Below are positions 45,203 through 57,690 of a stretch of DNA of 64,000 nt, one piece after another. The stretch lies in NCBI GenBank assembly GCA_903835255.1, contig CAILMI010000026.1:2740-66739 (forward strand). Reading direction: 5' to 3'. Below the pieces are notes generated by a model, which had not been told where the DNA came from, made no database searches, and saw nothing but the letters and a program-made list of their open reading frames with translations. The DNA comes from an uncultured Verrucomicrobia subdivision 3 bacterium (GTDB lineage Bacteria > Verrucomicrobiota > Verrucomicrobiia > Limisphaerales > UBA11358). Each line of letters opens with the position of its first letter. Positions within the stretch are counted from its first letter, which is position 1. The position numbers were made by a program, and so were the translations under genes.

Positions 45203-46984
45203 TTACAGCGCAAGGTTTTTCCGCAACCGCTCCTCCGCCTGTTCGTTGGTCAGGGCTTCCTTCGCACGCAACACCGCCATGCCCACCACCGGCGGATACG
45301 CCTGATCCGCCTTCATGCGCGGCTCCACGTATTCGATGATCTCAAACAGCAGCGCGTTGGCCGCCACATAATCCAAGCGCGTCAGCTGGGCGATGTAACG
45401 CGTCGCACGGTCAATCAACTTCAGATTGCTCGGCACCACCCAAATCATGTAATTGCCCATCACGCGGCCGAGCCGCACCATCGTGCAGGTGGAAACGGCG
45501 TTCATCACCAGCTTCACCGCCACACGCGTCACGCCATCGAGCAGCAAATTCGCTTCGGGCACGGATACCAGAACTGAAATTCCGGCGGCCGACGAAAGAT
45601 CGCCCGCCCGTTCCGGGCCAAAATAAATCAAGCCGGTCTGCGCCTGGTTCTTTTGCGCCGTAGCGAGTTGGTCTAGTTGAAATTGCCGCGCCGACGGCTT
45701 CTCCCCCGCCGCCATGACGGCAATCGCGCTGTCCTTCAATCCGAGCGACCGATGCCGGAGGCCGTGGCGGTCAATTTTGTAGCGCAGCAACTCGGTCGCC
45801 CTGATTTTACCGACGATTTCCAGCGTGCGATCGACTTTCGCCGCCTCCACCAGCCCGCGGACTTCCGCTTCGGCCCACACGACGCAGCGCGGTTCGCGTT
45901 TAAGAATGTTGCGCCAAGCGTCCGACGTCTGCTCGTCAGGCAAAAATAAAAACGCCCAGGATTCGGCGGCCGTGGCGTCGTCAAATTTGCGGAACGGCGG
46001 CGTGCAATAGGTGGGCGAACGCTCGGTCGTGTCCGTTAAAACATCAATGCCCAGGCGATCGGCAAAATAGCTGTTCTGGTGTCCGCTGCGATAAACCGAT
46101 TCCTCCAGCGCAACGATTTTTGCCAGCGCCTCCAGCAGCTCCGGCGAGCGCAGATTTTTGAACAGCTCTTCCAGCCTGGCAAGAAAGTGCGCCGCGACCT
46201 CCGCCGATTTCTGGCCGGAAAGTTCGCAGGCGACGATTTCCAAAATCGCCAGCAAGACGCACAGCTGGATTGACGTCGCCTGCATCCGCGTCGAGCCGGT
46301 GATGCTCATCGGCCCGGTGGCAAGGTTGATCTTTTCGATGCGCGCGTCTTGGATCACCTCGCGGCTGCGCTGAACGTGCTCGCACAAGATGTCATCGGGA
46401 TTGTTATAGACAAAATAAACTTTCGCGCCCGCGTCCACGCCCGCCCAGGCCGTGCCGATGACGAACGAGGTTTCGCCGCCTTCCGTGATGGCGAACACCA
46501 CATCCTTGGCCGACACACCGAGGTCCGCGACTTGTTTTCGACCAAACGCGGTGAAATCCTCGAAGCCTTCCACTGATTTAATGAGCGCGTAATCGCCGCC
46601 AGCCATAACGCTGAAGGTGCGGTTTTCAAAATCAGCGCGGCCGCGCTGCTGCCAGAAATCGCGCCAGATGGAATCCAGCAGAATGCTCAACCGGCCCGTC
46701 GAACCGCAGCCGGTGAAGAAAACCCGCCCGCCGTTTTTAACGGCGGCCAAAACGGTCGCCGCTATTTTTTCCGCGCGGCCGGATGACGCGAACTCGCGAA
46801 ATTTTTTCAGCACGTCTTCATCAGCTTGAAACAGCAAATCCAACGCGGCGGCAATATCGCCTTTTGCCACCTCGCTCAAATGCGCCGTGACCGGGTGCGA
46901 CGATTCGGTGACCAGCGCGCCGAGTTTGAATTGGCCGCTGATCTGCAAAAATTCTTCCGACCGGACTTGAGAACTCGCGCTCAT
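45203..46984 (-). CDS. Double-SIS-domain MurQ/glucokinase-regulator-like sugar-phosphate protein
   Basis: GCGSTGRL, AGG..A....EGFED, TGSTRMQA, and MurQ-like KLVMNAVST..GRVMGNYM..NLKLIDRA; 593 aa, about twice MurQ length. Confidence 0.75.
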   Translation of the reverse strand: MSASSQVRSEEFLQISGQFKLGALVTESSHPVTAHLSEVAKGDIAAALDLLFQADEDVLKKFREFASSGRAEKIAATVLAAVKNGGRVFFTGCGSTGRLSILLDSIWRDFWQQRGRADFENRTFSVMAGGDYALIKSVEGFEDFTAFGRKQVADLGVSAKDVVFAITEGGETSFVIGTAWAGVDAGAKVYFVYNNPDDILCEHVQRSREVIQDARIEKINLATGPMSITGSTRMQATSIQLCVLLAILEIVACELSGQKSAEVAAHFLARLEELFKNLRSPELLEALAKIVALEESVYRSGHQNSYFADRLGIDVLTDTTERSPTYCTPPFRKFDDATAAESWAFLFLPDEQTSDAWRNILKREPRCVVWAEAEVRGLVEAAKVDRTLEIVGKIRATELLRYKIDRHGLRHRSLGLKDSAIAVMAAGEKPSARQFQLDQLATAQKNQAQTGLIYFGPERAGDLSSAAGISVLVSVPEANLLLDGVTRVAVKLVMNAVSTCTMVRLGRVMGNYMIWVVPSNLKLIDRATRYIAQLTRLDYVAANALLFEIIEYVEPRMKADQAYPPVVGMAVLRAKEALTNEQAEERLRKNLAL

Positions 46985-47811
46985 AGATTTGCTTTTGAAA
47001 AAATTGCCGGCTTGGGAAAATTATTGGCCCGCTTGAATTTTTTTGCCGGCGGCGCGGTTTGACATGCCAGCACAAAGCTGCGGAAAATCGCCCGGTAGCA
47101 GGCCCCTTTCTGGACCAGCCGTTCAGGATGAAACTGCACACCCAGGAGGAACGGCATCTGGGCCGCCAGATCCGGCCGAAGTTCAATTGCCTCGACCAGA
47201 CCGTCACAGCTGCGCGCCGTGGCGACAAACGGATCCGCCGGCTCGGCAATTGCCTGATGATGCGTGCTGTTCACGCCCAGGCGGTGTTTCCGGGTGATTT
47301 TTGCCAGCAGCGAGCCGGGCACCACCTCCGTATCGTGCACCAGATCAAACGCCCGATCCATGCGCCGATGGTTCAAGAATCCCGGCGACTGCTTCGCGAT
47401 GTCCGCGATGAGTTTTCCGCCAAACGCCACGTTCAGCAATTGGTGGCCGCGGCAGATGGCCAGCATGGGCTTGCGCTGCCGAAAAATTTCCGCGATCAAA
47501 ATTAATTCAGCCGCGTCGCGCTGGCCCTTGTCCGGCGTCTGCTTCACGGTTTTGAGGATCGCGCGCGGCAGTTTGGCGTCGTAGAGGTTGGGGTTGATGT
47601 CATCGCCGCCGGTAAATAGCACGCCATCCGCATGGCGCACGCTTTCTGCCAGCAAAGCCCGGTCGGTTGTCGCCGGCGCGATGATCGGCAGTCCGCCCGC
47701 CGCCAGGATCGCATTGACATACCGGAGGGATAGGCTGACGGACAAATCACTAAATTCCACACCGCGCAGTTCAACGCTGGGCGTAATCAAAATTAACGGC
47801 GGCCGTTTCAT
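46981..47811 (-). CDS. Gamma-glutamyl-gamma-aminobutyrate hydrolase family (peptidase C26, class I GATase)
   Basis: TGGDDINP, AICRGHQLLNV (Cys), VNSTHHQ, GVQFHPE (His-Glu). Confidence 0.9.
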   Translation of the reverse strand: MKRPPLILITPSVELRGVEFSDLSVSLSLRYVNAILAAGGLPIIAPATTDRALLAESVRHADGVLFTGGDDINPNLYDAKLPRAILKTVKQTPDKGQRDAAELILIAEIFRQRKPMLAICRGHQLLNVAFGGKLIADIAKQSPGFLNHRRMDRAFDLVHDTEVVPGSLLAKITRKHRLGVNSTHHQAIAEPADPFVATARSCDGLVEAIELRPDLAAQMPFLLGVQFHPERLVQKGACYRAIFRSFVLACQTAPPAKKFKRANNFPKPAIFSKANL

Positions 47812-48224
47812 GCCGCAATTTAGAAAAAAAGGCGCCCCCTGTCAGGGAAAAACTGTTTTTTCGGGACCCCAGTTTTTAGGGGTGCGATCGCGAGGAAGAT
47901 GCGCTAGGCGACGCCATCGGGCGGCACAAAATCATATTTAAACGCGCCGCTGGTCGCCACCAGGCTGATCAAGCCTATTGCCCAGACGCGTTTCTCTGCC
48001 AAATTGCGCTTATTAAAATAGTCTCGCTCGATTCGAAAAAATCATTTTTAGACCACTGCGACCGGCTGATGAGACTTCTGTCAAACATCAAGCTTTACGC
48101 TGGCGCGCTCGCGGCCCGCTGGGAAATACTAATTTTGCAACTGGCGGCCTCATTAATCTCTGCTAATCGATATTTTCCAGTGCGAATATTACCCTTCAGG
48201 ATGCTTAATCCGGTTGCGTAACCC

Positions 48225-49538
48225 GTGCCATTGGTGAAAAATTACGAGGTGAAACAAAACAAAACGGGGCTAGCGGCCTCGCCGCCAGCAAATCGCATCA
48301 TGGTGTTGGGTGTCGGCTCGTTCGCGCACAGCATCGGGCGGGCGCTGGCGGACACCGGCGCGGATGTTTCAACGTATCTCACGCGTAATTATGGTCATTT
48401 TGCACCGTCGCTTGTCGGCAAAACTTTTTCGCACGAGACGTTTCCGAGCCCAGTGCCGCTCTTGAGCAAAAACAAAACGGATGTGGCCATCCCGCAGTCC
48501 ATTGACTGGGCGATGCAGCCGTGGGCGAAAAATATGGTGGAATCGGGTGTTGGCATTTTTAGCCCAACCGGGGAGGCGATGAGGATTGAACGCGAACGCG
48601 ATTTTGCGCGCGAACTTTGCGCGCGCTTCAAGATTCCATTTCCAAAATCCTTCGTTGCGTCTAACCGCATCGAAGCCGAGAAAGTCCTCGAAAAAAATCC
48701 GCAGCCATTCGTCATCAAGAATCCGCTCTGCTCGCCGACCAGCCCGGTTCATACAATTTTGTGTGAAACGGTGTCCGACACGCGCGCCTGGCTTCGGCAG
48801 GTGAATTATGCCGAGGGCGTTTTTTTGCAGGAATATCTCGGTCGTGCCGAGGCCGGGCACATTGCACTCGTCAGCGGCGGCGAAATCCATTCGCTCGTGA
48901 CAAACCAGGAATATAAATACGCCTTCAACGGCAACATGGGCATCGTCGCCGGCGCGCCGCTCGGAGGACTGATCGAACGCGACGAAAACGACAAATACGG
49001 CCTGGCGCGGGAATTGATTCATCCGCTGATGCCTTGGCTGCGCGAAGCCCAGTACCATGGGCCGCTCCAAGTGACCGCCATCAAACGGGGCGGCAAATGG
49101 CACGTCATCGAATACAACATCCGCATCGGCATCACTTCCGGCCCGATGATTTTGCGGATGCTAAAAAAGCCGGCGGAAATTATTTTGCGGACGGCGCGGA
49201 ACGAAAAATTAAAGCTGGAGTTCAAAAATAAATTGAACTTCGGCTGCTCGCTCACGCTGGCCGGTTATGGCTATCCGTTCACGCAGGTGCGCGGGCCGCA
49301 GCTGCCGCTGGAGGTGAACGGCAAATTCGACTGCGACGTGTGGTGGAACGAGGTTGCGCGCGGCGCGGACGGCAAACTCATGACCACCGGCCACCGCATC
49401 GCCGATGTGAGCGCGCTGGCGCCAACTCTCAAAACCGCGATCGCCAAAGCTTACGCCAACATCCGTAAAATCCGGGTCGCGGGCAGTTATTTCCGCACGG
49501 ATGTCGGCCAGAGCTTATGGCCGCCGGGTACAGTTTGA
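48225..49538 (+). CDS. PurD (GAR synthetase)-like ATP-grasp ligase, divergent paralog
   Basis: IEYNIRIG, GYGYP, TTGHRI...AYANI....YFRTDVG resemble the PurD C-terminus; PurD GREHA and KADGLAAGKGV motifs absent; start uncertain. Confidence 0.7.
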   Translation: MPLVKNYEVKQNKTGLAASPPANRIMVLGVGSFAHSIGRALADTGADVSTYLTRNYGHFAPSLVGKTFSHETFPSPVPLLSKNKTDVAIPQSIDWAMQPWAKNMVESGVGIFSPTGEAMRIERERDFARELCARFKIPFPKSFVASNRIEAEKVLEKNPQPFVIKNPLCSPTSPVHTILCETVSDTRAWLRQVNYAEGVFLQEYLGRAEAGHIALVSGGEIHSLVTNQEYKYAFNGNMGIVAGAPLGGLIERDENDKYGLARELIHPLMPWLREAQYHGPLQVTAIKRGGKWHVIEYNIRIGITSGPMILRMLKKPAEIILRTARNEKLKLEFKNKLNFGCSLTLAGYGYPFTQVRGPQLPLEVNGKFDCDVWWNEVARGADGKLMTTGHRIADVSALAPTLKTAIAKAYANIRKIRVAGSYFRTDVGQSLWPPGTV

Positions 49539-49639: not shown

Positions 49640-50791
49640 ATGAAATTGGATTCTGAAAATTTTCCGCTGCGGCCGGCGTGGACTGAGATTGACCTCGGTA
49701 AGCTGCGCCGCAACCTGCAACTCATCCGCAGCGACCTGCCGCGCGGGGTGAAACTGCTCGCCGTCGTGAAAGACGAGGCCTATGGCCATGGCGCCCTCGA
49801 CGTCGCGCGCGTCGCGGTCGAGGAAGGCGCATGGGGCTTTTGCTTGAGCACGCTCGAGGAGGCGATGCTCCTGCGGGAAGGCGGCATCACCGCGCCGCTG
49901 CTGCTTCTCGGCGAACGGCAGGAGGCCGAACTCGAATGGTGCGTCGCGCACCACCTGACGGTTTGCGTGAACGAATTGCACACCGTCCGCAGGCTGGCGA
50001 AAATAGCAGCGGCGTTTGGCAAACAGGTTCCGGTACACGTTAAAATCCACACCGGCATGAGCCGTTACGGCGTGCGCTGGGAAGAGGCGCTGCCGCTCAT
50101 CGAAACAATTGTCGCCGAAAAATCCTTATTGCTCGAAGGCGTGATGACGCATTTCTCGCAGTCGGACGAAGCGGAGAAGAATTTTGCGAACCTTCAATTC
50201 GCGCGGTTCAGCGAAGTGCTGCGCGCGATGGAGCAAAAAGGGATTTCCGTTAAGCTCCGTCACACCTGCAACAGCGGCGGCTTCCTGGATTTGCCTCAGG
50301 CGCATCTGGACATGGTGCGCGTGGGCATTTTGCTTTACGGTGTTTTCCCCTCGCAGGTCTGTCGGAAAATTGAAGGCATCGAACCGGTGATGTCGGTGAA
50401 GGCGAAAATTGCGGCGATCCAAAAACTGAAACCCGGCGAAGTTGTCGGCTACGGGATGCATTACACTGCGCCGTCCGAGCGGCGCATCGCGATTCTTCCT
50501 ATCGGCTACGGCGACGGTTTTCCCCGCGTGCGCAACGAGGGATGCGCGCTCATCCACGGCAGGCGCGCCCCGATCATCGGCGGCATCGCGATGGACGCGC
50601 TGATGGTGGATATCACGGACATTCCGCAGGCGCAGATGTGGGACGAGTCCGTGCTGATGGGCCCGCAAGGCGCCCACGAAATCACCGTGCGCGACATTGC
50701 CAAGCTGAAAAAATCTGTGACATACGACGTGCTGACCAACTGGCGGCTGCGGCTGCGGCGCAAGGCGGTAAACGGTTCAACCACGAATTGA
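49640..50791 (+). CDS. alr: Alanine racemase family protein
   Basis: PLP Lys in AVVKDEAYGHG, KIHTGMSRYG, catalytic Tyr in VGYG, PIGYGDG. Confidence 0.88.
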   Translation: MKLDSENFPLRPAWTEIDLGKLRRNLQLIRSDLPRGVKLLAVVKDEAYGHGALDVARVAVEEGAWGFCLSTLEEAMLLREGGITAPLLLLGERQEAELEWCVAHHLTVCVNELHTVRRLAKIAAAFGKQVPVHVKIHTGMSRYGVRWEEALPLIETIVAEKSLLLEGVMTHFSQSDEAEKNFANLQFARFSEVLRAMEQKGISVKLRHTCNSGGFLDLPQAHLDMVRVGILLYGVFPSQVCRKIEGIEPVMSVKAKIAAIQKLKPGEVVGYGMHYTAPSERRIAILPIGYGDGFPRVRNEGCALIHGRRAPIIGGIAMDALMVDITDIPQAQMWDESVLMGPQGAHEITVRDIAKLKKSVTYDVLTNWRLRLRRKAVNGSTTN

Positions 50792-50854: not shown

Positions 50855-51658
50855 ATGAAACTCCTTTTCTCTGAACAAAACTCCGATTACGAGAACTACC
50901 AGTTCCCGTATGCGATCTGGGCCGTTCCCGAACCGGATGAGACGCCAGCGGATATTTTCAACGCCGGATTCCTGCCGTCTTCCCGCAATCTGGACCGGTT
51001 TTATTTGTGTCGCCATGTGCGAGTGAACCTGGCGAAGTTCAAGCCGTCGTCCGAAAATCGCCGCATCCTGCGCAAGGGCGCGGAGATTGAGGTGAAGCTC
51101 GTGGCGCGCGACAAATTCGATTACACGCCGGAACGCCGCCAGTTTTTCAAGACCTACGCCGACATCAAGTTTGGCAAGGACGTGATGACCTACGAGCGTC
51201 TCGACGGGCTGTTCGGCGCGCCGATTATTTCGCATCTGCTCGTATTTACCGATACGGCGAACGGCAAGGAAGTTGGCGTGGCCATGCTGTATCTGGAAGG
51301 CAAGGCGCTGGCGTTTTATTACTATGCTTTCTACGACCTAAATTATTATTCACGAAACCTCGGCATGTTCATGATGACCTCGGCGGTGGCGCTCTTTGCC
51401 GAGCAGGGCAGGGAATTTTTTTATCTGGGCACCTGCTACTCCGACGCGGCGCTTTACAAGACGCAATTTGCCGGCGCGGAATTTTTTAACGGTTTCCGGT
51501 GGTCTTCCAATCTAAAAGAGCTGAAATACATTTTGTGCCGTGACAAAAAAGATTTGCGGCAGCATCTCCTTGAAACCGAGGATTATCGCAAAGAATTTTA
51601 CGGCGGCGATCTTGTCAAAATGACTACCGGAAGCCTGTTTTCAGTCAAGCTGCAGTAG
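50855..51658 (+). CDS. Aminoacyl-tRNA-protein transferase-like (ATE/Bpt fold)
   Basis: R.NL.KFKPSSENRRILRK (ATE_N-like) and YAFYDL....NLG....YLG......YK (ATE_C-like); ATG 50855. Confidence 0.65.
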   Translation: MKLLFSEQNSDYENYQFPYAIWAVPEPDETPADIFNAGFLPSSRNLDRFYLCRHVRVNLAKFKPSSENRRILRKGAEIEVKLVARDKFDYTPERRQFFKTYADIKFGKDVMTYERLDGLFGAPIISHLLVFTDTANGKEVGVAMLYLEGKALAFYYYAFYDLNYYSRNLGMFMMTSAVALFAEQGREFFYLGTCYSDAALYKTQFAGAEFFNGFRWSSNLKELKYILCRDKKDLRQHLLETEDYRKEFYGGDLVKMTTGSLFSVKLQ

Positions 51659-51664
51659 GCGGTT

Positions 51665-52270
51665 TTATCGCGGTCTCACTTGGACGCCCAGCTTCTTTCC
51701 GTCGGTGGCGAATGAGAGGGCTCCCCGATCCAACGCGCCTTCAAACAGGTCGGAGGCGATCAGCAGATTCCCCTCCAAATGCAGGAAATCCCCAGTTCCG
51801 CCAGATGCGCAGCCGCGCGAATCATCACGCTGACTTCGAGCATGCATCCGATCATCGTCTGCAAGCCCGCGTGGCCGCGCCATCTAGGCTCAGCGCGCAC
51901 TTGGCGCTGACGGGAATATCCGGCACGGCTTCGAGATCCGCCATGCTGCCGGGAACATTGCTAAATTTTCCCAAGGTCTAGCTGCGGCAGAAAACTGAGA
52001 AGGCCGTGAGCCGATTTGCCCTACAGGCTGGCCGGCGCGGTCTCGCCGATGGCTGGCAGGCCTAACGCCCGCAGCGGCGAGCTCCACATTCACCGTGCGG
52101 TGAATACCGGAGCCTTGGGAGCTGGCGGTTTTTTGGGGTGGGGCAAGGTTCTGCTCGGACAGGCTTGCGTTCCATTTTACCGGGGAATTCAATAGATTCC
52201 ATCCCGTTTGAAATGCGATTGGAACAATTACGTCCCACCCTGAATTGGCTCTACGCTGTCGGCGTGGCAC
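51665..52270 (-). pseudogene. Decayed L-Ala-D/L-Glu (dipeptide) epimerase, enolase superfamily
   Basis: HAGLQTMIGCMLEVSVMIRAAAHLAEL (frame A) continues after a frameshift near 51790 into DFLHLEGNLLIASDLFEG (frame B); weaker relics ANSGW (~52240) and EQ (~52150); 5' limit approximate. Confidence 0.7.
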
Positions 52271-52533
52271 TCGGCAACATGTCGCTGCACCGCAGTCGCC
52301 ACGTCGCCGAAAAAATAGGATTCCAATCACGGCCAATCAAAATTTTATCGGTAGCCCATCCCTGATTTAGGCGTCGCCGATGGGAAAACAAAACGGAACC
52401 GAACGCGGTACTTTTTCATTTCTTGGCGCTGGGTTTCATGACGTTTTCTGGCGGACATGGCCAAAAAATTGGAAATAGCCAATAAAAACAATGGGGAATC
52501 AATCCAACAAGGGGAGCCATTTCAGGCAGAAGA

Positions 52534-52608
52534 TGGTGCGCGATGGAGGGTTTGAACCTCCGACCCCTACCGTGTCAAGGTAATGCTCTACCACTGAGCT
52601 AACCGCGC
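52534..52608 (-). tRNA. tRNA-Val (GAC)
   Basis: Full cloverleaf: acceptor GCGCGGT/ATCGCGC, anticodon loop TTGACAC, T loop TTCAAAC, encoded CCA. Confidence 0.97.
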
Positions 52609-52949
52609 AACTACACCGACTTTTTAAAAATCGATAATTGATTTTAAAAAACCGGCCCAAATACTCTCAAAAAAAGTCCCGCAGCGCAATTTCATTTTCG
52701 AGGACGGGGATAGATTCAAAGCCGGTCACCCCAGAAAACACCACCGAACGGCATCGGGGGAGACGGCTGGGGATCCCGCATCACCCGCCCGGACCACGCT
52801 TTTGAAGCGGTTTAACGGCGACGGGAGCGGAACCTGGATCCGCACCTGCCCCCGGCGTCCGGTGCATTTTTTTCAAGGTACTCTGCAAAAGAACATGGCG
52901 ATTTCGGCGCCGTTTTTGATAATGTCTTCAGCGCATAAGCAACAACACC

Positions 52950-54212
52950 ATGAACCACTATCTTTCTCTGGGGAAATTTTCCTTTGGCATGGGCGACCGT
53001 TTTGGCCAGCAAGGCCGTGCGCAGCTGCGGGCCTGCGTGCTCGCCACCGAACTGGGCGCCCATTTCGTGCCAGTCTGGAACAAATCCAACCGCGAGCATT
53101 CCTTCATCGGCACCGAGCCGTCCAGCTTGCGCGCCGAGGCCGATGCGGCCGTGCAGGCGCTTGGCTGGAAAAGCCCCTATCACGTGGACGCCGATCACAT
53201 CCGCCTAGAGACGGTGGATCGCTTCATCGCGCCCTCGGATTTTTTCACGATTGATGTGGCGGATAGCATCGGCAAGCCGGCCGCCGCCGCCGATGTGAAG
53301 GCGTTTGTGGACCGTCACCCCGAACTCATCGGCACCGTGTCCATCCCGCATATCGACCAGCCTTTTGCCATTTCCCGCGCCGAAGTGGAGCGGGTGGCCA
53401 ACAAATTCCTGCTGGCCGTTCAGGATGCGGGGAAGATCTACCAGCACATCGTCCGGGCCAAGGGCGCGGAGCACTTCATCACCGAAGTTTCCATGGACGA
53501 AACGGACAGCCCGCAGACCCCGCCGGAGCTGCTGATCATCCTGGCGGCGATCGCCGACCAGAAAATCCCCCTGCAGACCATTGCCCCCAAATTCACCGGC
53601 CGTTTTAACAAGGGCGTGGACTACGTGGGGGATGTGAAACAATTCGAGAAGGAATTCAACGAGGACCTCGCCGTCATCGCCTATGCCATCCAAAAATACG
53701 GCCTGCCGCCGTCGCTGAAGCTGAGCGTCCACTCCGGCAGCGACAAATTTTCCATATACGAGCCGATGCGCCGCGCCCTGAAGAAGTTTGATGCGGGGGT
53801 GCACATCAAGACGGCGGGCACGACCTGGCTGGAGGAGATCATCGGGCTGGCGGAAGCGGGCGGGGATGGCCTGGAGATCGCAAAGGAAATCTACGCCTAC
53901 GCGCGGGAGCATGTGGATGAATTCTGCGCGCCTTACGCCAGCGTGATTGACATCAATCCGGCGCAGCTGCCGACGGCGGCGGTGGTAAATGCATGGAGTT
54001 CGGAGCAATTTGTTTCCGCGCTCCGGCACGACCGGAAAAACCCAGGATACAACCCGAGCTTCCGTCAGTTGCTGCATGTGAGCTTCAAGGTGGCGGCGAA
54101 AAAAGGCGACCGCTATCTGAAGGCGCTCAAAAATCACGAGGCAGTTGTGGCCCGGAACGTCACTGAAAACCTGTTTGAGCGGCACATGAAACCCCTGCTG
54201 CTCGGCTCCTAA
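52950..54212 (+). CDS. uxaE: Tagaturonate/fructuronate epimerase (UxaE family)
   Basis: SFGMGDRF, YHVDADHI, EVSMDET, KLSVHSGSDKF, HIKTAGTTWLE; next to uxaC. Confidence 0.85.
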   Translation: MNHYLSLGKFSFGMGDRFGQQGRAQLRACVLATELGAHFVPVWNKSNREHSFIGTEPSSLRAEADAAVQALGWKSPYHVDADHIRLETVDRFIAPSDFFTIDVADSIGKPAAAADVKAFVDRHPELIGTVSIPHIDQPFAISRAEVERVANKFLLAVQDAGKIYQHIVRAKGAEHFITEVSMDETDSPQTPPELLIILAAIADQKIPLQTIAPKFTGRFNKGVDYVGDVKQFEKEFNEDLAVIAYAIQKYGLPPSLKLSVHSGSDKFSIYEPMRRALKKFDAGVHIKTAGTTWLEEIIGLAEAGGDGLEIAKEIYAYAREHVDEFCAPYASVIDINPAQLPTAAVVNAWSSEQFVSALRHDRKNPGYNPSFRQLLHVSFKVAAKKGDRYLKALKNHEAVVARNVTENLFERHMKPLLLGS

Positions 54213-54216
54213 TTTT

Positions 54217-55650
54217 ATGCCCTACATTCACGAGGATTTTCTGTTAAGCACTCCGGCCGCGCGCCGGCTCTACCACAAGTACGCCGAAGCCGAGCCGATT
54301 TTTGATTATCACTGTCATATTCCTCCCCAGGACATTGCCAGCAACCGCCGGTTTAAGAACCTGTTTGAGATCTGGCTGGAGGGCGATCATTACAAGTGGC
54401 GGGCGATGCGCAGCGACGGGGTGGCGGAAAAATTCTGCACCGGGTCAGCCACGCCGCACGACAAGTTTCTCGCCTGGGCCAGGACCGTGCCGCAGACCCT
54501 GCGCAACCCGCTGTATCACTGGACCCATCTCGAGCTCAAACGCTATTTTGGCATCACGGACCTTCTGGATGAAACCACGGCCGAAACAATCTGGCAGCGG
54601 GCGAACGAGCAGCTGGCCACCCCCGCACTCACCACCCAGGGCATCCTTAAGAAATTCAAGGTCAAGGTCGTCTGCACGACGGATGATCCGGTGGACACCC
54701 TAGAACATCACCGCGCCTTTGCGGCCCAGGGTCACCCGACCCGCATGCTGCCGGCATTCCGGCCGGACCGGGCGCTCATTGTGAATGCCCCCGCCGCCTT
54801 CAACCGGTGGGTGGAGCAGCTGTCTGCCGCCGCAAATGTGGACATCAACAGCTTTGGCGCCTTCACTCTGGCGCTGGAGAAGCGCCATGCCTTTTTCCAT
54901 TCGCAGGGCTGCCGGTTATCCGACCATGGATTGAACCATTGCCATGCCGATTTCTGTACAGAGAAGGTGGCCGCCGGCATTTTCGACAAGGCCCGCCGCG
55001 GCGGGCAGGTGACGCCGGAGGAACACTCCCAGTTCGCCTCGTTTATGATGGTGCTGTTTGGGCAGCTCGACGCGAAGCGAGGCTGGACCAAGCAGCTGCA
55101 TCTCGGGGCACTGCGCAGCAACAACAGCCGGCTGCTCAAGCAGATCGGCCCGGACACGGGCTTTGATTCGATTGGGGATTTCCCTCAGGCGCAAACGCTC
55201 GCCGCTTATCTCAACCGGCTGGACTCCGAAAACACCCTGCCCAAGACGGTCATTTACAACCTGAATCCGGCGGACAACTACGTCTTCGCCTCGATGATCG
55301 GGAATTTTCAGGATGGCACCTCCGCCGGCAAAATCCAGTATGGGTCCGGCTGGTGGTTTCTCGACCAGAAAGAAGGCATGGAGATGCAGATCAATGCGCT
55401 GTCCAACCTCGGCCTGCTGGCCCGATTCATCGGCATGATCACCGACTCGCGCTCGTTCATGAGCTATCCGCGACATGAATATTTCCGGCGGACGCTGTGC
55501 AATCTGGTCGGCCGCGACATTGCGAACGGCGAGATTCCCGACGATGAAAAGCTGGTCGGCCCGATGATCCGGAACATCTGCTATGCCAACGCAAAGCAGT
55601 ACATGGCTTTTCCCGGCATGGACGACCCCGCGCCCAAAAAGAAAAAATAA
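54217..55650 (+). CDS. uxaC: Uronate (glucuronate) isomerase
   Basis: IFDYHCH, GDHYKWRAMR, GSGWWFLDQ, TDSRSFMSYPRHEYFRR. Confidence 0.97.
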   Translation: MPYIHEDFLLSTPAARRLYHKYAEAEPIFDYHCHIPPQDIASNRRFKNLFEIWLEGDHYKWRAMRSDGVAEKFCTGSATPHDKFLAWARTVPQTLRNPLYHWTHLELKRYFGITDLLDETTAETIWQRANEQLATPALTTQGILKKFKVKVVCTTDDPVDTLEHHRAFAAQGHPTRMLPAFRPDRALIVNAPAAFNRWVEQLSAAANVDINSFGAFTLALEKRHAFFHSQGCRLSDHGLNHCHADFCTEKVAAGIFDKARRGGQVTPEEHSQFASFMMVLFGQLDAKRGWTKQLHLGALRSNNSRLLKQIGPDTGFDSIGDFPQAQTLAAYLNRLDSENTLPKTVIYNLNPADNYVFASMIGNFQDGTSAGKIQYGSGWWFLDQKEGMEMQINALSNLGLLARFIGMITDSRSFMSYPRHEYFRRTLCNLVGRDIANGEIPDDEKLVGPMIRNICYANAKQYMAFPGMDDPAPKKKK

Positions 55651-55716
55651 TCACGAGTCCGGCACTTAAAAAACCGGGGCACCGGCGCGGTTTTGCCGGC
55701 CCGCCCAGAATCCACC

Positions 55717-56232
55717 ATGAGCCGTCGCCTCTTCCTTTTTTTGTCCCTGGCATTGCCGCTGGGTGCGGCGACCTTTAGCGTGCGAGACTTCGGCGCCTCC
55801 GGCGACGGCAAATCCATGGATACGGCGTCGATCCAAAAGGCGCTGGACGCCCGCCAGCCCGCCGGCGGCACGGTGCTCTTCCCGCCCGGCACCTATTTGA
55901 GCCAGCCGCTGACGCTTCGCACCCGGACCACGGTGCTGCTGGATCCCGGCGCCACATTGCTGGCCAGCACGAACCAGGCACATTTCATGAAGGTGCCCGG
56001 CGACTGGCTGGCGGCGAAAAGCGGCAGTGATTTCATCCCATTTCTGGGCGGCAAGGATCTGGAGGAAGTCCGTTTGACCGGCGGCGGCGTGATTGACGGG
56101 AATGGCGCGGCCTGGTGGGGCGAGGCGGAAAAAGCGCGCCAGAAAAAAACCGGCTACACCCTGCCCCGGCCGAACCTGGTCGTCCTCGAGAACTCGCAGG
56201 TGACGGGCCTGGACCCAAAACAATCCCCGTGA
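55717..56232 (+). pseudogene. Truncated GH28 / pectate-lyase-fold glycoside hydrolase (N-terminal part only)
   Basis: Signal peptide, VRDFGASGDG, PPGTYLS, GGGVIDGNG, RP; stops before the catalytic NxD/DD/GHG/RxK motifs. Confidence 0.7.
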
Positions 56233-56328
56233 GCCTCGGCTCACAAATCACCAACAGATTTACAGACAGACTCGCTAAAAATCCGCGGCAATCCTCACAG
56301 CAGACAAACACAGCAGACAATTCATCCC

Positions 56329-57690
56329 ATGAAAAAACAATTCCTCCTCTCGGTGCTCGGACTGATGATCTCCCTCCCCCTTCGCGCGGCGCCGTCGGAA
56401 TGGGATCAGGTGCCGGAGATCCTGGCGCGCATCGTCCCGCCGCAATTTCCTGCGCGCGACTTTGTCATCACGCGGTATGGCGCGGTCGGGGATGGCAAGG
56501 CGGACTGCGGCGGCGCGATCCGGAAGGCGATTGCCGCCTGCGCTGAAGCGGGCGGCGGGAGGGTTGTGGTTCCCGCCGGCGACTTTCTGACCGGCCCGGT
56601 CCATCTGCTGAGCGGGGTGAATCTGCATCTGGAAACGAATGCCGTGCTGCGATTCAGCACCGACCCCCAAGCTTATTTGCCCGCCGTATTCACTCGATTC
56701 GAGGGAATCGAATGCTACAACTACTCGCCCCTGATCTATGCGTTTGAACAAAAAAACGTCGCCGTGACCGGGGCCGGAATGCTGGACGGCCAGGCGGCTG
56801 AATCCAACTGGCTGGCGTGGAAAGGCCAGAAAAACAAGGAGGACGGAACGCAAAAGGCGGCGCGCGCGCGCCTTGTAAAAATGATGGAGGCCAACACGCC
56901 CGTCGCCGAACGCCGTTTCGGGGCAGGCGATTTCCTGCGCCCGAGCTTCGTCGAATTCAACCGCTGCCAGAACGTCCTGATCGAAGGGGTCCGCATTCGC
57001 CGCTCGCCGATGTGGGAGCTGCACCCCCTGCTCTGTACCAACGTTACCGTGCGCGGTGTGGACATCGTCTCGCACGGGGCCAACAACGACGGGTGCGACC
57101 CGGAAAGCTGCACGGACGTGCTGATCGAAGGCTGCCTGTTCGATACCGGCGACGACTGCATCGCCATCAAATCCGGGCGGAATGCCGACGGCCGCCGCGT
57201 GGGCGTGCCGTCCCAGAACATTGTTGTGCGGAATTGCACGATGCGGGACGGCCACGGCGGCGTGACCATTGGCAGCGAAATCTCCGGCAGCTGCAGCAAC
57301 GTCTTTGTGGAGAACTGCGAGATGAGCAGTCCGGACCTGACCTGCGCGCTGCGGCTGAAATCCAACGCCATGCGCGGCGGGGTGCTGCAGAATATCTTCA
57401 TGCGCAACGTGAAGGTCGGACGGGTTTCGGATTCCGTGTTACAGATCGATTTCCTTTATGAGGAAGGTGCCCGGGGCAGCTTCAATCCCGTCGCCCGGAA
57501 CATCGTGATGGAAAATATCCAGGGGGCAGACATTCCGCGCGTGCTGAACGTGAGGGGGTTTCCCGGCGCCAGCATCCGCGGGGTGCGGATTTATAACTCA
57601 ACGTTCCGGCAGATTAAAAAGCCCGATGTGGTCATCGACGCCGACGTGACGCTGGTGGATTGCAAGCTGGAACCCTATCGTCCGAATTAA
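56329..57690 (+). CDS. Glycoside hydrolase family 28 (polygalacturonase-like)
   Basis: NNDG, GDDCIAIKSG, GHGG.TIGSE, LRLKS; signal peptide. Confidence 0.93.
   Translation: MKKQFLLSVLGLMISLPLRAAPSEWDQVPEILARIVPPQFPARDFVITRYGAVGDGKADCGGAIRKAIAACAEAGGGRVVVPAGDFLTGPVHLLSGVNLHLETNAVLRFSTDPQAYLPAVFTRFEGIECYNYSPLIYAFEQKNVAVTGAGMLDGQAAESNWLAWKGQKNKEDGTQKAARARLVKMMEANTPVAERRFGAGDFLRPSFVEFNRCQNVLIEGVRIRRSPMWELHPLLCTNVTVRGVDIVSHGANNDGCDPESCTDVLIEGCLFDTGDDCIAIKSGRNADGRRVGVPSQNIVVRNCTMRDGHGGVTIGSEISGSCSNVFVENCEMSSPDLTCALRLKSNAMRGGVLQNIFMRNVKVGRVSDSVLQIDFLYEEGARGSFNPVARNIVMENIQGADIPRVLNVRGFPGASIRGVRIYNSTFRQIKKPDVVIDADVTLVDCKLEPYRPN

Follow-up and report, generated by a model that had tools for sequence, protein, structure and literature searches.

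The subject of this work is a set of three genes in a stretch of 64,000 nucleotides (the window) from contig CAILMI010000026.1 of an uncultured Verrucomicrobia subdivision 3 bacterium (GenBank assembly GCA_903835255.1). The first gene encodes a PurD-like ATP-grasp ligase, here termed PurDL; it is followed on the same strand by alr, for alanine racemase, and by a gene for a homologue of the ATE1/Bpt aminoacyl-tRNA transferases, here termed ATE-like (Table 1). Around them lie ribosomal protein genes, a SIS/MurQ-like gene, a C26 peptidase gene, uxaE, uxaC, a GH28 gene and a major facilitator superfamily (MFS) transporter gene. Our results indicate that PurDL represents a new ATP-grasp family, derived from PurD and mis-annotated in databases, which is functionally coupled to the aminoacyl-tRNA transferase homologue and to alr.

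Table 1. Position of the genes and motifs discussed in the text. Plain numbers are positions in the window; C, contigs of the same genome; L, other contigs; aa, amino acids; ORF, open reading frame.
Feature	Position	Strand	Remarks
PurDL, PurD-like ATP-grasp ligase	48225..49538	+	longest ORF, GTG start, 437 aa, uninterrupted
N-domain motif GVGSFAHS	48309..48332	+	residues 29-36; replaces PurD G-G-G-R-E-H-A phosphoribosylamine site; alignment with PurD
B-domain loop KNPLCSPTSPVHT	48717..48755	+	residues 165-177; replaces PurD K-A-D-G-L-A-A-G-K-G-V; ATP-binding Lys165 retained; alignments
EYNIRIGITSG	49110..49142	+	PurD G-D-P-E becomes G-I-T-S-G; Mg ligands E296 and N298 and catalytic R300 retained; alignments, roles from PMC8880213
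alr, alanine racemase	49640..50791	+	101 bp 3' of PurDL; TIGR00492, 357 bits
ATE-like, ATE1/Bpt-like aminoacyl-tRNA transferase homologue	50855..51658	+	267 aa from ATG 50855; longest ORF from TTG 50819
Double-SIS protein with overlapping peptidase C26/gamma-glutamyl hydrolase gene	45203-47811	-	double-SIS protein of 593 aa; GKRP_SIS_N; at threshold of N-acetylmuramic acid 6-phosphate (MurNAc-6-P) etherase model
tRNA-Val(GAC)	52534-52608	-	in 1.3-kb gap 3' of ATE-like gene
Pectin/hexuronate block	52950-57690	+	UxaE-like tagaturonate epimerase, UxaC glucuronate isomerase, GH28 polygalacturonase
Canonical purD	C54:37462-38748		510 bits
Mpl	C12:103378-104811	+	Mur_ligase_M, NCBIfam
MurF	C55:155787-157169	-	Mur_ligase_M, NCBIfam
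FolC	C59:28456-29769	-	Mur_ligase_M, NCBIfam
Division and cell wall (dcw) cluster	C55:145703-161450		rsmH-ftsL-ftsI-murF-mraY-(LysM protein)-ftsW-murG-murB-ddl-ftsQ-ftsA-ftsZ
Canonical ddl	C55:149171-150130		251-308 bits; in dcw cluster
LysM protein	C55:153512-154258	-	248 aa; DipM/ActS-like
LysM protein of genome G251	L171:10804-11541		between mraY and ftsW
ThiH/BioB-like radical-SAM + BATS gene	L137:1077-2279		divergently upstream of PurDL
STAND-coupled PurD-like locus, example	L073:4381-9311		metagenome contig
Most divergent PurD-like homologue, locus	L078:1756-7689		Logan contig
Bdellovibrionales-like dcw cluster 1			ftsI-murF-mraY-ftsW-murG-murB-ddl; without murD, murC
Bdellovibrionales-like dcw cluster 2			ftsI-murE-murF-mraY-ftsW-murG-murB-ddl; without murD, murC

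Translation of PurDL probably starts inside the longest ORF, at ATG 48300 (Met26), to yield a product of 412 aa; this start is favoured because homologues align from residue 22-26, many of them being 412 aa long. The Pfam search of the protein returned GARS_C (46 bits) and GARS_A (30.5 bits, exceeding its cut-off of 27) and no match to GARS_N (PF02844). With the NCBIfam equivalog model of purD, TIGR00877, the protein reached 113 bits, where the cut-off is 288. The sequence matches of PurDL in the PDB are PurD throughout (E 1e-9 to 6e-24), and it is collinear with PurD along its entire length, at 21-29% identity. An AlphaFold model, for which an alignment of 26 family members was the input, has a predicted local distance difference test score (pLDDT) of 90.6 and the four-domain (N, B, A, C) fold of PurD; its top 15 PDB structures are PurD, with template modelling (TM) scores of 0.76-0.84, and biotin carboxylases come next. 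The initial annotation of the window had called the gene a PurD-fold ligase from the C-terminal motifs GYGYP, TTGHRI and YFRTDVG, and both the motifs, all found in the ORF, and the model uphold this description. The Ddl model (TIGR01205) does not match PurDL, and no Mur_ligase_M domain was found in it, so that any role like that of MurC, MurD or MurE would be a matter of analogy and not of homology.

PurDL retains the catalytic core of PurD and differs from it in the substrate loops. In Aquifex PurD, the charged residues that bind ATP and Mg are E100, K103, K143, E185, E192 and K214, and glycine is bound by D212, R287 and E292 (PMC8880213). When these residues were mapped onto PurDL by motif register on alignments, not by superposition of structures, most were found kept or conservatively replaced (E100 to E122, K103 to R125, K143 to K165, E192 to E209, D212 to E229, K214 to K231 and R287 to R300), while E185 is changed to Q202 and the glycine-binding E292 to S305, a Ser in at least 90% of the family. 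The ATP-grasp residue set is thus present, with R125, K165, E209, K231, E296, N298 and R300 invariant in the family; the glycine-binding set of PurD is not, its Asp being Glu229 and its Glu292 being Ser305, with Arg300 kept. PurDL therefore shares with PurD (EC 6.3.4.13; PDB 2YW2, 1GSO, 2XCL) the fold, the core Lys165, Glu209, Lys231, Glu296-x-Asn298 and Arg300, the C-domain motifs GYP, GxR and FRxDxG and, presumably, the acyl-phosphate chemistry. Unlike PurD, it has no GARS_N signature, carries the B-loop KNPxCSPxSPxHT, and shows GxTSG in place of GDPE.

Across 26 PurDL members, down to 31% identity, K165, N166, E296, Y297, N298, R300 and G302 are invariant, and P167, C169, P171, S173, P174, T177, S305 and G306 are conserved in at least 90%. 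The consensus of the flexible B-loop is K-N-P-x-C-S-P-x-S-P-x-H-T, the N-domain motif has an invariant G29 and an F33 conserved in at least 90%, and the GPNTGGMG loop of PurD is shortened. Since the rewritten loops are conserved down to 31% identity, decay is dismissed: on these alignments, the replacements are a signature of the family and speak of new specificity. The initial annotation had listed GVGSFAHS and NIRIGITSG (residues 298-306) as substitutes for the N-terminal motif of PurD and for NVRFGDPE, and both stand where it placed them, the latter conserved in the family. Its description of a rewritten ATP loop holds for the flexible B-domain loop, which is replaced, and fails for the ATP/Mg ligands, which are kept. 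Judged from its sequence, PurDL is very probably an active ligase with non-purine substrates.

PurDL is also a paralogue of PurD in the genomes that carry it. A canonical purD lies elsewhere in the genome of the window, and one was found in 30/30 other carriers as well, at 400-526 bits, their PurD-like copies scoring 77-122 bits. In a maximum-likelihood tree, the PurDL family, including its distant members, forms one clade and PurD another, with support of 98 and 99, respectively, in the Shimodaira-Hasegawa-like approximate likelihood ratio test (SH-aLRT). A scan of 1.84 billion cluster representatives delimited a compact family, with full-length members down to about 31-40% identity, followed by a gap and then by PurD at 97 bits or less. 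Of 151 genomes sampled from the order to which the window belongs, 54 encode orthologues (48-84% identity), as do 0/200 genomes from the rest of the phylum. The GTDB species representatives, one genome per species, contain 377 loci, whose titles point to metagenome-assembled genomes of Limisphaerales or Verrucomicrobia subdivision 3, recovered from bogs, peat, soil and lakes. The separate clade, the canonical purD and the replaced substrate-site motifs together support the proposal, made in the initial annotation, that a PurD-fold ligase had been repurposed for a different amine/carboxylate pair, and the outcome named there as contrary, a place among true PurD in a genome with no other purD, did not occur; its observation that no pur genes are nearby agrees with the identity of the neighbours. 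A literature search on PurD-like paralogues, DUF482 and Mpl-only or MurC/D/E-less Verrucomicrobia found nothing relevant.

The PurD fold, the collinearity over the full length and the label phosphoribosylamine-glycine ligase that public annotations give to PurDL could all be taken as signs of a second, divergent glycinamide ribonucleotide (GAR) synthetase or of an inactive pseudo-enzyme. This explanation is highly improbable, given that other residues, themselves conserved, stand in place of the phosphoribosylamine (PRA) motif and of the glycine-binding Glu, that canonical purD is always co-present and that PurDL never stands in a pur context. A dead enzyme is further argued against by the invariant catalytic Lys, Glu, Asn and Arg and by the strong conservation of the family. 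PurDL as the sole or second PurD of the cell was rejected on the 113-bit score, the canonical purD and the separate clade.

PurDL adjoins alr and a gene for a tRNA-dependent transferase, and not pur genes. Of 21 long loci, 16-18 show the order PurDL, alr, ATE-like; alr follows PurDL in at least 74 of 102 loci, a count lowered by antisense shadow ORFs and truncated contigs. The ATE-like gene, too, was counted in 54 of these 151 genomes, and 51 have both it and PurDL, including genomes with the two genes on different contigs. In the genome of the window, the ATE-like gene is single-copy and alr is the sole alanine racemase (a single genome match). The ATE-like protein matches ATE_C with 24.8 bits and arginyltransferase models with at most 52 bits (family cut-offs of at least 170); it is devoid of the Cys-rich ATE_N motif, and a PDB sequence search with its profile gave 0 matches. 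Its structural model (pLDDT 69, core 76-94) has as top Foldseek matches ATE1, MprF/aminoacyl-phosphatidylglycerol synthases, FemX and the peptide synthases Sbb17/Sba18, all of them aminoacyl-tRNA-dependent transferases.

The genome of the window, which is 97.5% complete, has an unusual set of Mur ligases. The Mur_ligase_M model finds three genes only, with which P-loop regex scans concur, and NCBIfam names them Mpl (449 bits, cut-off 388.7), MurF (398 bits) and FolC (365 bits). The Mpl gene scores 310 bits with the murC model, under the cut-off of 335. MurC, MurD and MurE were found by none of these three methods in this genome, and a search for MurE, made to test for a Lys-type peptide, returned as best match, at 67.7 bits, the MurF gene. 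The dcw cluster is otherwise intact, with the slots of murE, murD and murC empty. An assembly gap is dismissed as the cause because a congeneric genome in seven contigs likewise has three Mur-family genes. A LysM protein gene sits between mraY and ftsW, the usual position of murD, and a second genome (G251) has one in the same place. Two candidate substitutes were considered and rejected: PurDL as a replacement for Ddl, ruled out by the canonical ddl of the dcw cluster, and other unusual ATP-grasp genes as replacements for Mur ligases, CarB, AccC, Ddl, PurD and SucC being the only ones seen. At the level of motifs, the glutamate racemase signatures DSGxGG and GCTH[YF]P have no match in the ORFs of this genome, nor have two patterns of the PROSITE Asp/Glu-racemase type, and the class-IV aminotransferases are IlvE and PabC-like only, with no clear D-amino-acid transaminase. 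The motif-level lack of a MurI-type racemase and of such a transaminase leaves room for D-Glu salvage.

MurC, MurD and MurE are regarded as universal and essential steps of peptidoglycan synthesis. A cell that has Mpl and MurF without them must obtain L-Ala-gamma-D-Glu-meso-diaminopimelate (meso-DAP) as a free peptide, with two peptide bonds. By analogy with known enzymes, the conserved pair of PurDL and the ATE-like protein may offer two suitable chemistries, namely acyl-phosphate carboxylate-amine ligation and aminoacyl-tRNA transfer to N-terminal acidic residues. The reading that we prefer, with a probability of roughly 0.45, is that the pair contributes in some way to the synthesis or repair of the peptide that feeds Mpl, thereby bypassing MurC, MurD and MurE. 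That the substrates of PurDL are peptidoglycan intermediates of some kind, whether peptides or amino acids, is the broader claim, and a rather probable one; a full de novo off-nucleotide route to the tripeptide, which would bypass all three ligases, seems doubtful.

In the preferred reading, PurDL would be a carboxylate-amine ligase of PurD descent that has lost GAR production and would act as a unit with the ATE-like enzyme, the two being co-expressed or co-transcribed with alr. The pair would form bonds of the stem peptide L-Ala-gamma-D-Glu-meso-DAP, or of part of it, as a free peptide and off UDP-N-acetylmuramic acid (UDP-MurNAc). PurDL may phosphorylate D-Glu at its gamma-carboxyl or L-Ala at its carboxyl and join the activated group to the next amine, that of meso-DAP or D-Glu, and the ATE-like enzyme may use Ala-tRNA to attach L-Ala to an N-terminal D-Glu at its free alpha-amine. 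Mpl would then load the free peptide onto UDP-MurNAc, although the link and the order of the steps are ones that we infer, and MurF would add D-Ala-D-Ala made by alr and Ddl; a co-transcribed alr fits with the supply of D-Ala to Ddl and MurF. The pair could serve de novo synthesis or the repair of scavenged wall fragments into a tripeptide accepted by Mpl, so adding either capacity to an Mpl-based and partly scavenging lifestyle.

The distribution of PurDL across the 151 genomes of the order, with MurE counted as present at E <= 1e-40, is consistent with such a role. MurE is absent from 46 genomes with PurDL and present in 8, and it is absent from 27 genomes without PurDL and present in 70. 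Three Mur-family genes were counted in 15 of 20 PurDL-positive, MurE-negative genomes; PurDL-negative, MurE-positive genomes have 5-6, with six in 13 of 15. Two carriers that retain MurE appear to have lost MurC: in G266, MurD, MurE, MurF and Mpl were classified directly and no MurC was found, the fifth gene being presumably FolC, and in G203 the same count, together with a MurD match, points to MurC loss. A carrier family of this kind, f105, has four Mur-family genes. Mpl was found in every carrier classified. Outside the phylum, 3 and 4 Mur-family genes were counted in two Bdellovibrionales-like carriers, and murD and murC are missing from the dcw cluster of each (Table 1). The PurDL/transferase pair thus tracks the MurC/D/E-reduced state in two phyla.

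Several observations weigh against the preferred reading. Shared ancestry inflates the raw association of PurDL with the absence of MurE (Fisher p = 6e-12). The traits intermix on a MurF tree of weak resolution, where PurDL requires at least four supported changes, and phylogenetically independent pairs on that tree showed no trend in a test without power. The 27 genomes of the order without MurE and PurDL, 24 of which are also without the ATE-like gene, imply that the pair cannot be the only or an obligatory source of peptide for Mpl. Most of these share the reduced set of 3-4 Mur-family genes, and some keep MurD, from which it follows that the loss of MurC, MurD and MurE is mosaic, a pattern shared by about half of the genomes sampled in the order. 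One of them, G251, is a 2-contig assembly congeneric with a carrier. The non-verrucomicrobial support comes from two independent genomes only, one of which keeps MurE, and for the two bonds there are three candidate enzymes in the Bdellovibrionales-like module. Moreover, alr is a housekeeping gene, and its adjacency may reflect co-regulation instead of a shared substrate. It is questionable that the off-nucleotide route is in use across much of Verrucomicrobia subdivision 3 (Limisphaerales/Pedosphaerales) and, of independent origin, in some Bdellovibrionales-like bacteria.

The distant branches of the family bear on what PurDL may do. Three Bdellovibrionales-like contigs encode a homologue with 31-34% identity, in the arrangement of a FemAB_like gene on the divergent strand followed by an aspartokinase-like kinase gene, PurDL and alr. 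The kinase is without ACT domains and might supply the DAP pathway or activate the carboxylate of a side chain; as a candidate partner in the genome of the window it was rejected, the housekeeping aspartokinase alone being found there. Similarity between the ATE-like protein and the FemAB_like protein was undetectable by BLASTP, and the two are analogues in one fold group, not orthologues. A further branch, on the metagenome contigs L072-L076, consists of PurD-like homologues with 36-40% identity, whose gene follows that of a 1207-aa STAND NTPase (AAA_16/NACHT + TPR) with a 4-bp overlap, in translational coupling. Its surroundings include TIR_2/TIR, nSTAND1, DAP-epimerase and a DAO-family oxidase or a fragment with the Orn/DAP-decarboxylase fold, and the locus resembles a conflict or defence island in which the ligase would be an effector or partner. 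The most divergent homologue (33% identity) lies between a gene for an unknown 448-aa protein and three small ORFs (66-80 aa), followed by a radical S-adenosylmethionine (SAM) gene, a context that may be similar to that of ribosomally synthesised and post-translationally modified peptides (RiPPs). A racemase, epimerase or D-amino-acid enzyme adjoins PurDL in 3/4 branches, and a partner with the tRNA-transferase fold accompanies it in 2/4.

These associations could instead indicate a wall branch or cross-bridge, in which PurDL would add a D-amino acid, such as D-Ala from alr, to the free amine of the stem diamino acid and the ATE/Fem-like enzyme would extend the branch with a residue from an aminoacyl-tRNA, the loss of MurC, MurD and MurE being unrelated. 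The adjacency of alr in two phyla, a partner from the fold group that includes FemX, the FemAB_like protein of the Bdellovibrionales-like module and the DAP-related neighbours of a third branch are all in line with this possibility. A precedent exists in Enterococcus faecium, where the ATP-grasp D-aspartate ligase Asl(fm) reportedly works with its racemase. We nevertheless regard a branch as unlikely: it leaves the carriers' loss of MurC, MurD or MurE unexplained, DAP-type Gram-negative walls are normally cross-linked directly, and alr, as the sole racemase of the genome, is no dedicated supplier.

Another proposal would be that PurDL makes, and the tRNA-dependent transferase extends, a small cytoplasmic metabolite that contains D-Ala or Gly and is unrelated to the wall, such as a dipeptide-like osmolyte, a signal or a secondary metabolite. 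ATP-grasp ligases and tRNA-dependent transferases (e.g. Sbb17/Sba18) are known in small-molecule pathways, one distant PurDL homologue stands beside small ORFs and a radical-SAM gene, and the presence of PurDL is patchy within genera, which suits an accessory trait. Against this, no other conserved biosynthetic, export or resistance genes surround the three genes, PurDL is as conserved as alr (48-84% identity across families), and the family is confined to reduced-Mur genomes in two phyla, all of which makes such a metabolite distinctly unlikely.

The proposed feeding of Mpl by PurDL and its partner has parallels in known systems. In the recycling route of Mpl (UDP-MurNAc:L-Ala-gamma-D-Glu-meso-DAP ligase, TIGR01081), a free peptide is loaded by Mpl and completed by MurF, as is proposed here; in E. 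coli, however, the tripeptide comes from wall turnover only and MurC, MurD and MurE are essential, whereas they are absent from the genome of the window, whose peptide must consequently be made or scavenged by other means. As is proposed for PurDL, Asl(fm) with its aspartate racemase and Ddl are ATP-grasp ligases that join wall amino acids and are racemase-adjacent or racemase-fed, although they belong to other ATP-grasp subfamilies. The ATE-like protein shares with ATE1/Bpt and FemX/FemAB/MurM the GNAT-type fold of aminoacyl-tRNA-dependent transferases. ATE1/Bpt add a residue to the alpha-amine of N-terminal Asp or Glu, and the same chemistry is proposed for L-Ala onto D-Glu; unlike them, the ATE-like protein has neither ATE_N nor a clpS/aat context, and its proposed acceptor is a small wall peptide and not a protein. 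MurD2/MurL of Xanthomonas reportedly provides an alternative incorporation of D-Glu, still with Mur-family ligases on the nucleotide; it would be a precedent for rewired early steps of the stem peptide, the genome of the window being instead without homologues of MurC, MurD and MurE.

MurC, MurD and MurE are antibiotic targets, and here abundant bacteria of soil and peat keep MurB, MurF, MraY, MurG, FtsW, FtsI and Ddl and have Mpl alone in their place. If the preferred reading is true, an essential wall precursor would be reached off the nucleotide and with the help of tRNA, which would be a new biosynthetic logic, and a purine enzyme would clearly have been recruited for building the cell wall. 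Should PurDL serve only salvage or other D-amino-acid chemistry, more than 2000 database proteins labelled 'phosphoribosylamine-glycine ligase' are still mis-annotated, and the substrates of the family are testable whichever reading holds.

The genes 5' of PurDL vary among loci, with the C26 peptidase and SIS genes in the window and ThiH-like, RecG and others elsewhere. The double-SIS gene overlaps the gene of the peptidase C26/gamma-glutamyl hydrolase by 4 bp, and the pair is divergent from PurDL. Together, these two genes suggest wall recycling; a functional tie to PurDL was rejected, their adjacency being found in 0/24 and later in none of more than 100 related loci. A gene for a ThiH/BioB-like radical-SAM protein with a BATS domain lies divergently upstream of PurDL in about 36 related loci, that is, in about one third of the verrucomicrobial loci and not in the window, and looks like sub-clade synteny. 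Searches of the flanks (47812-48300 and 51600-52960) by tblastx and blastn revealed no conservation that would mark a small ORF, a peptide substrate or an RNA, and the only Rfam match was tRNA-Val. In the rest of the gap that holds this tRNA gene (51659-52530), neither Pfam nor Rfam gave a match and relatives show no conservation; a decayed L-Ala-D/L-Glu epimerase (51665-52270) was rejected there, as no frame piece matched Pfam. A scan for promoters and terminators found sites no more numerous than in shuffled sequence. Beyond the gap, the three genes are followed by a pectin/hexuronate block, which fits a polysaccharide-degrading lifestyle in soil.

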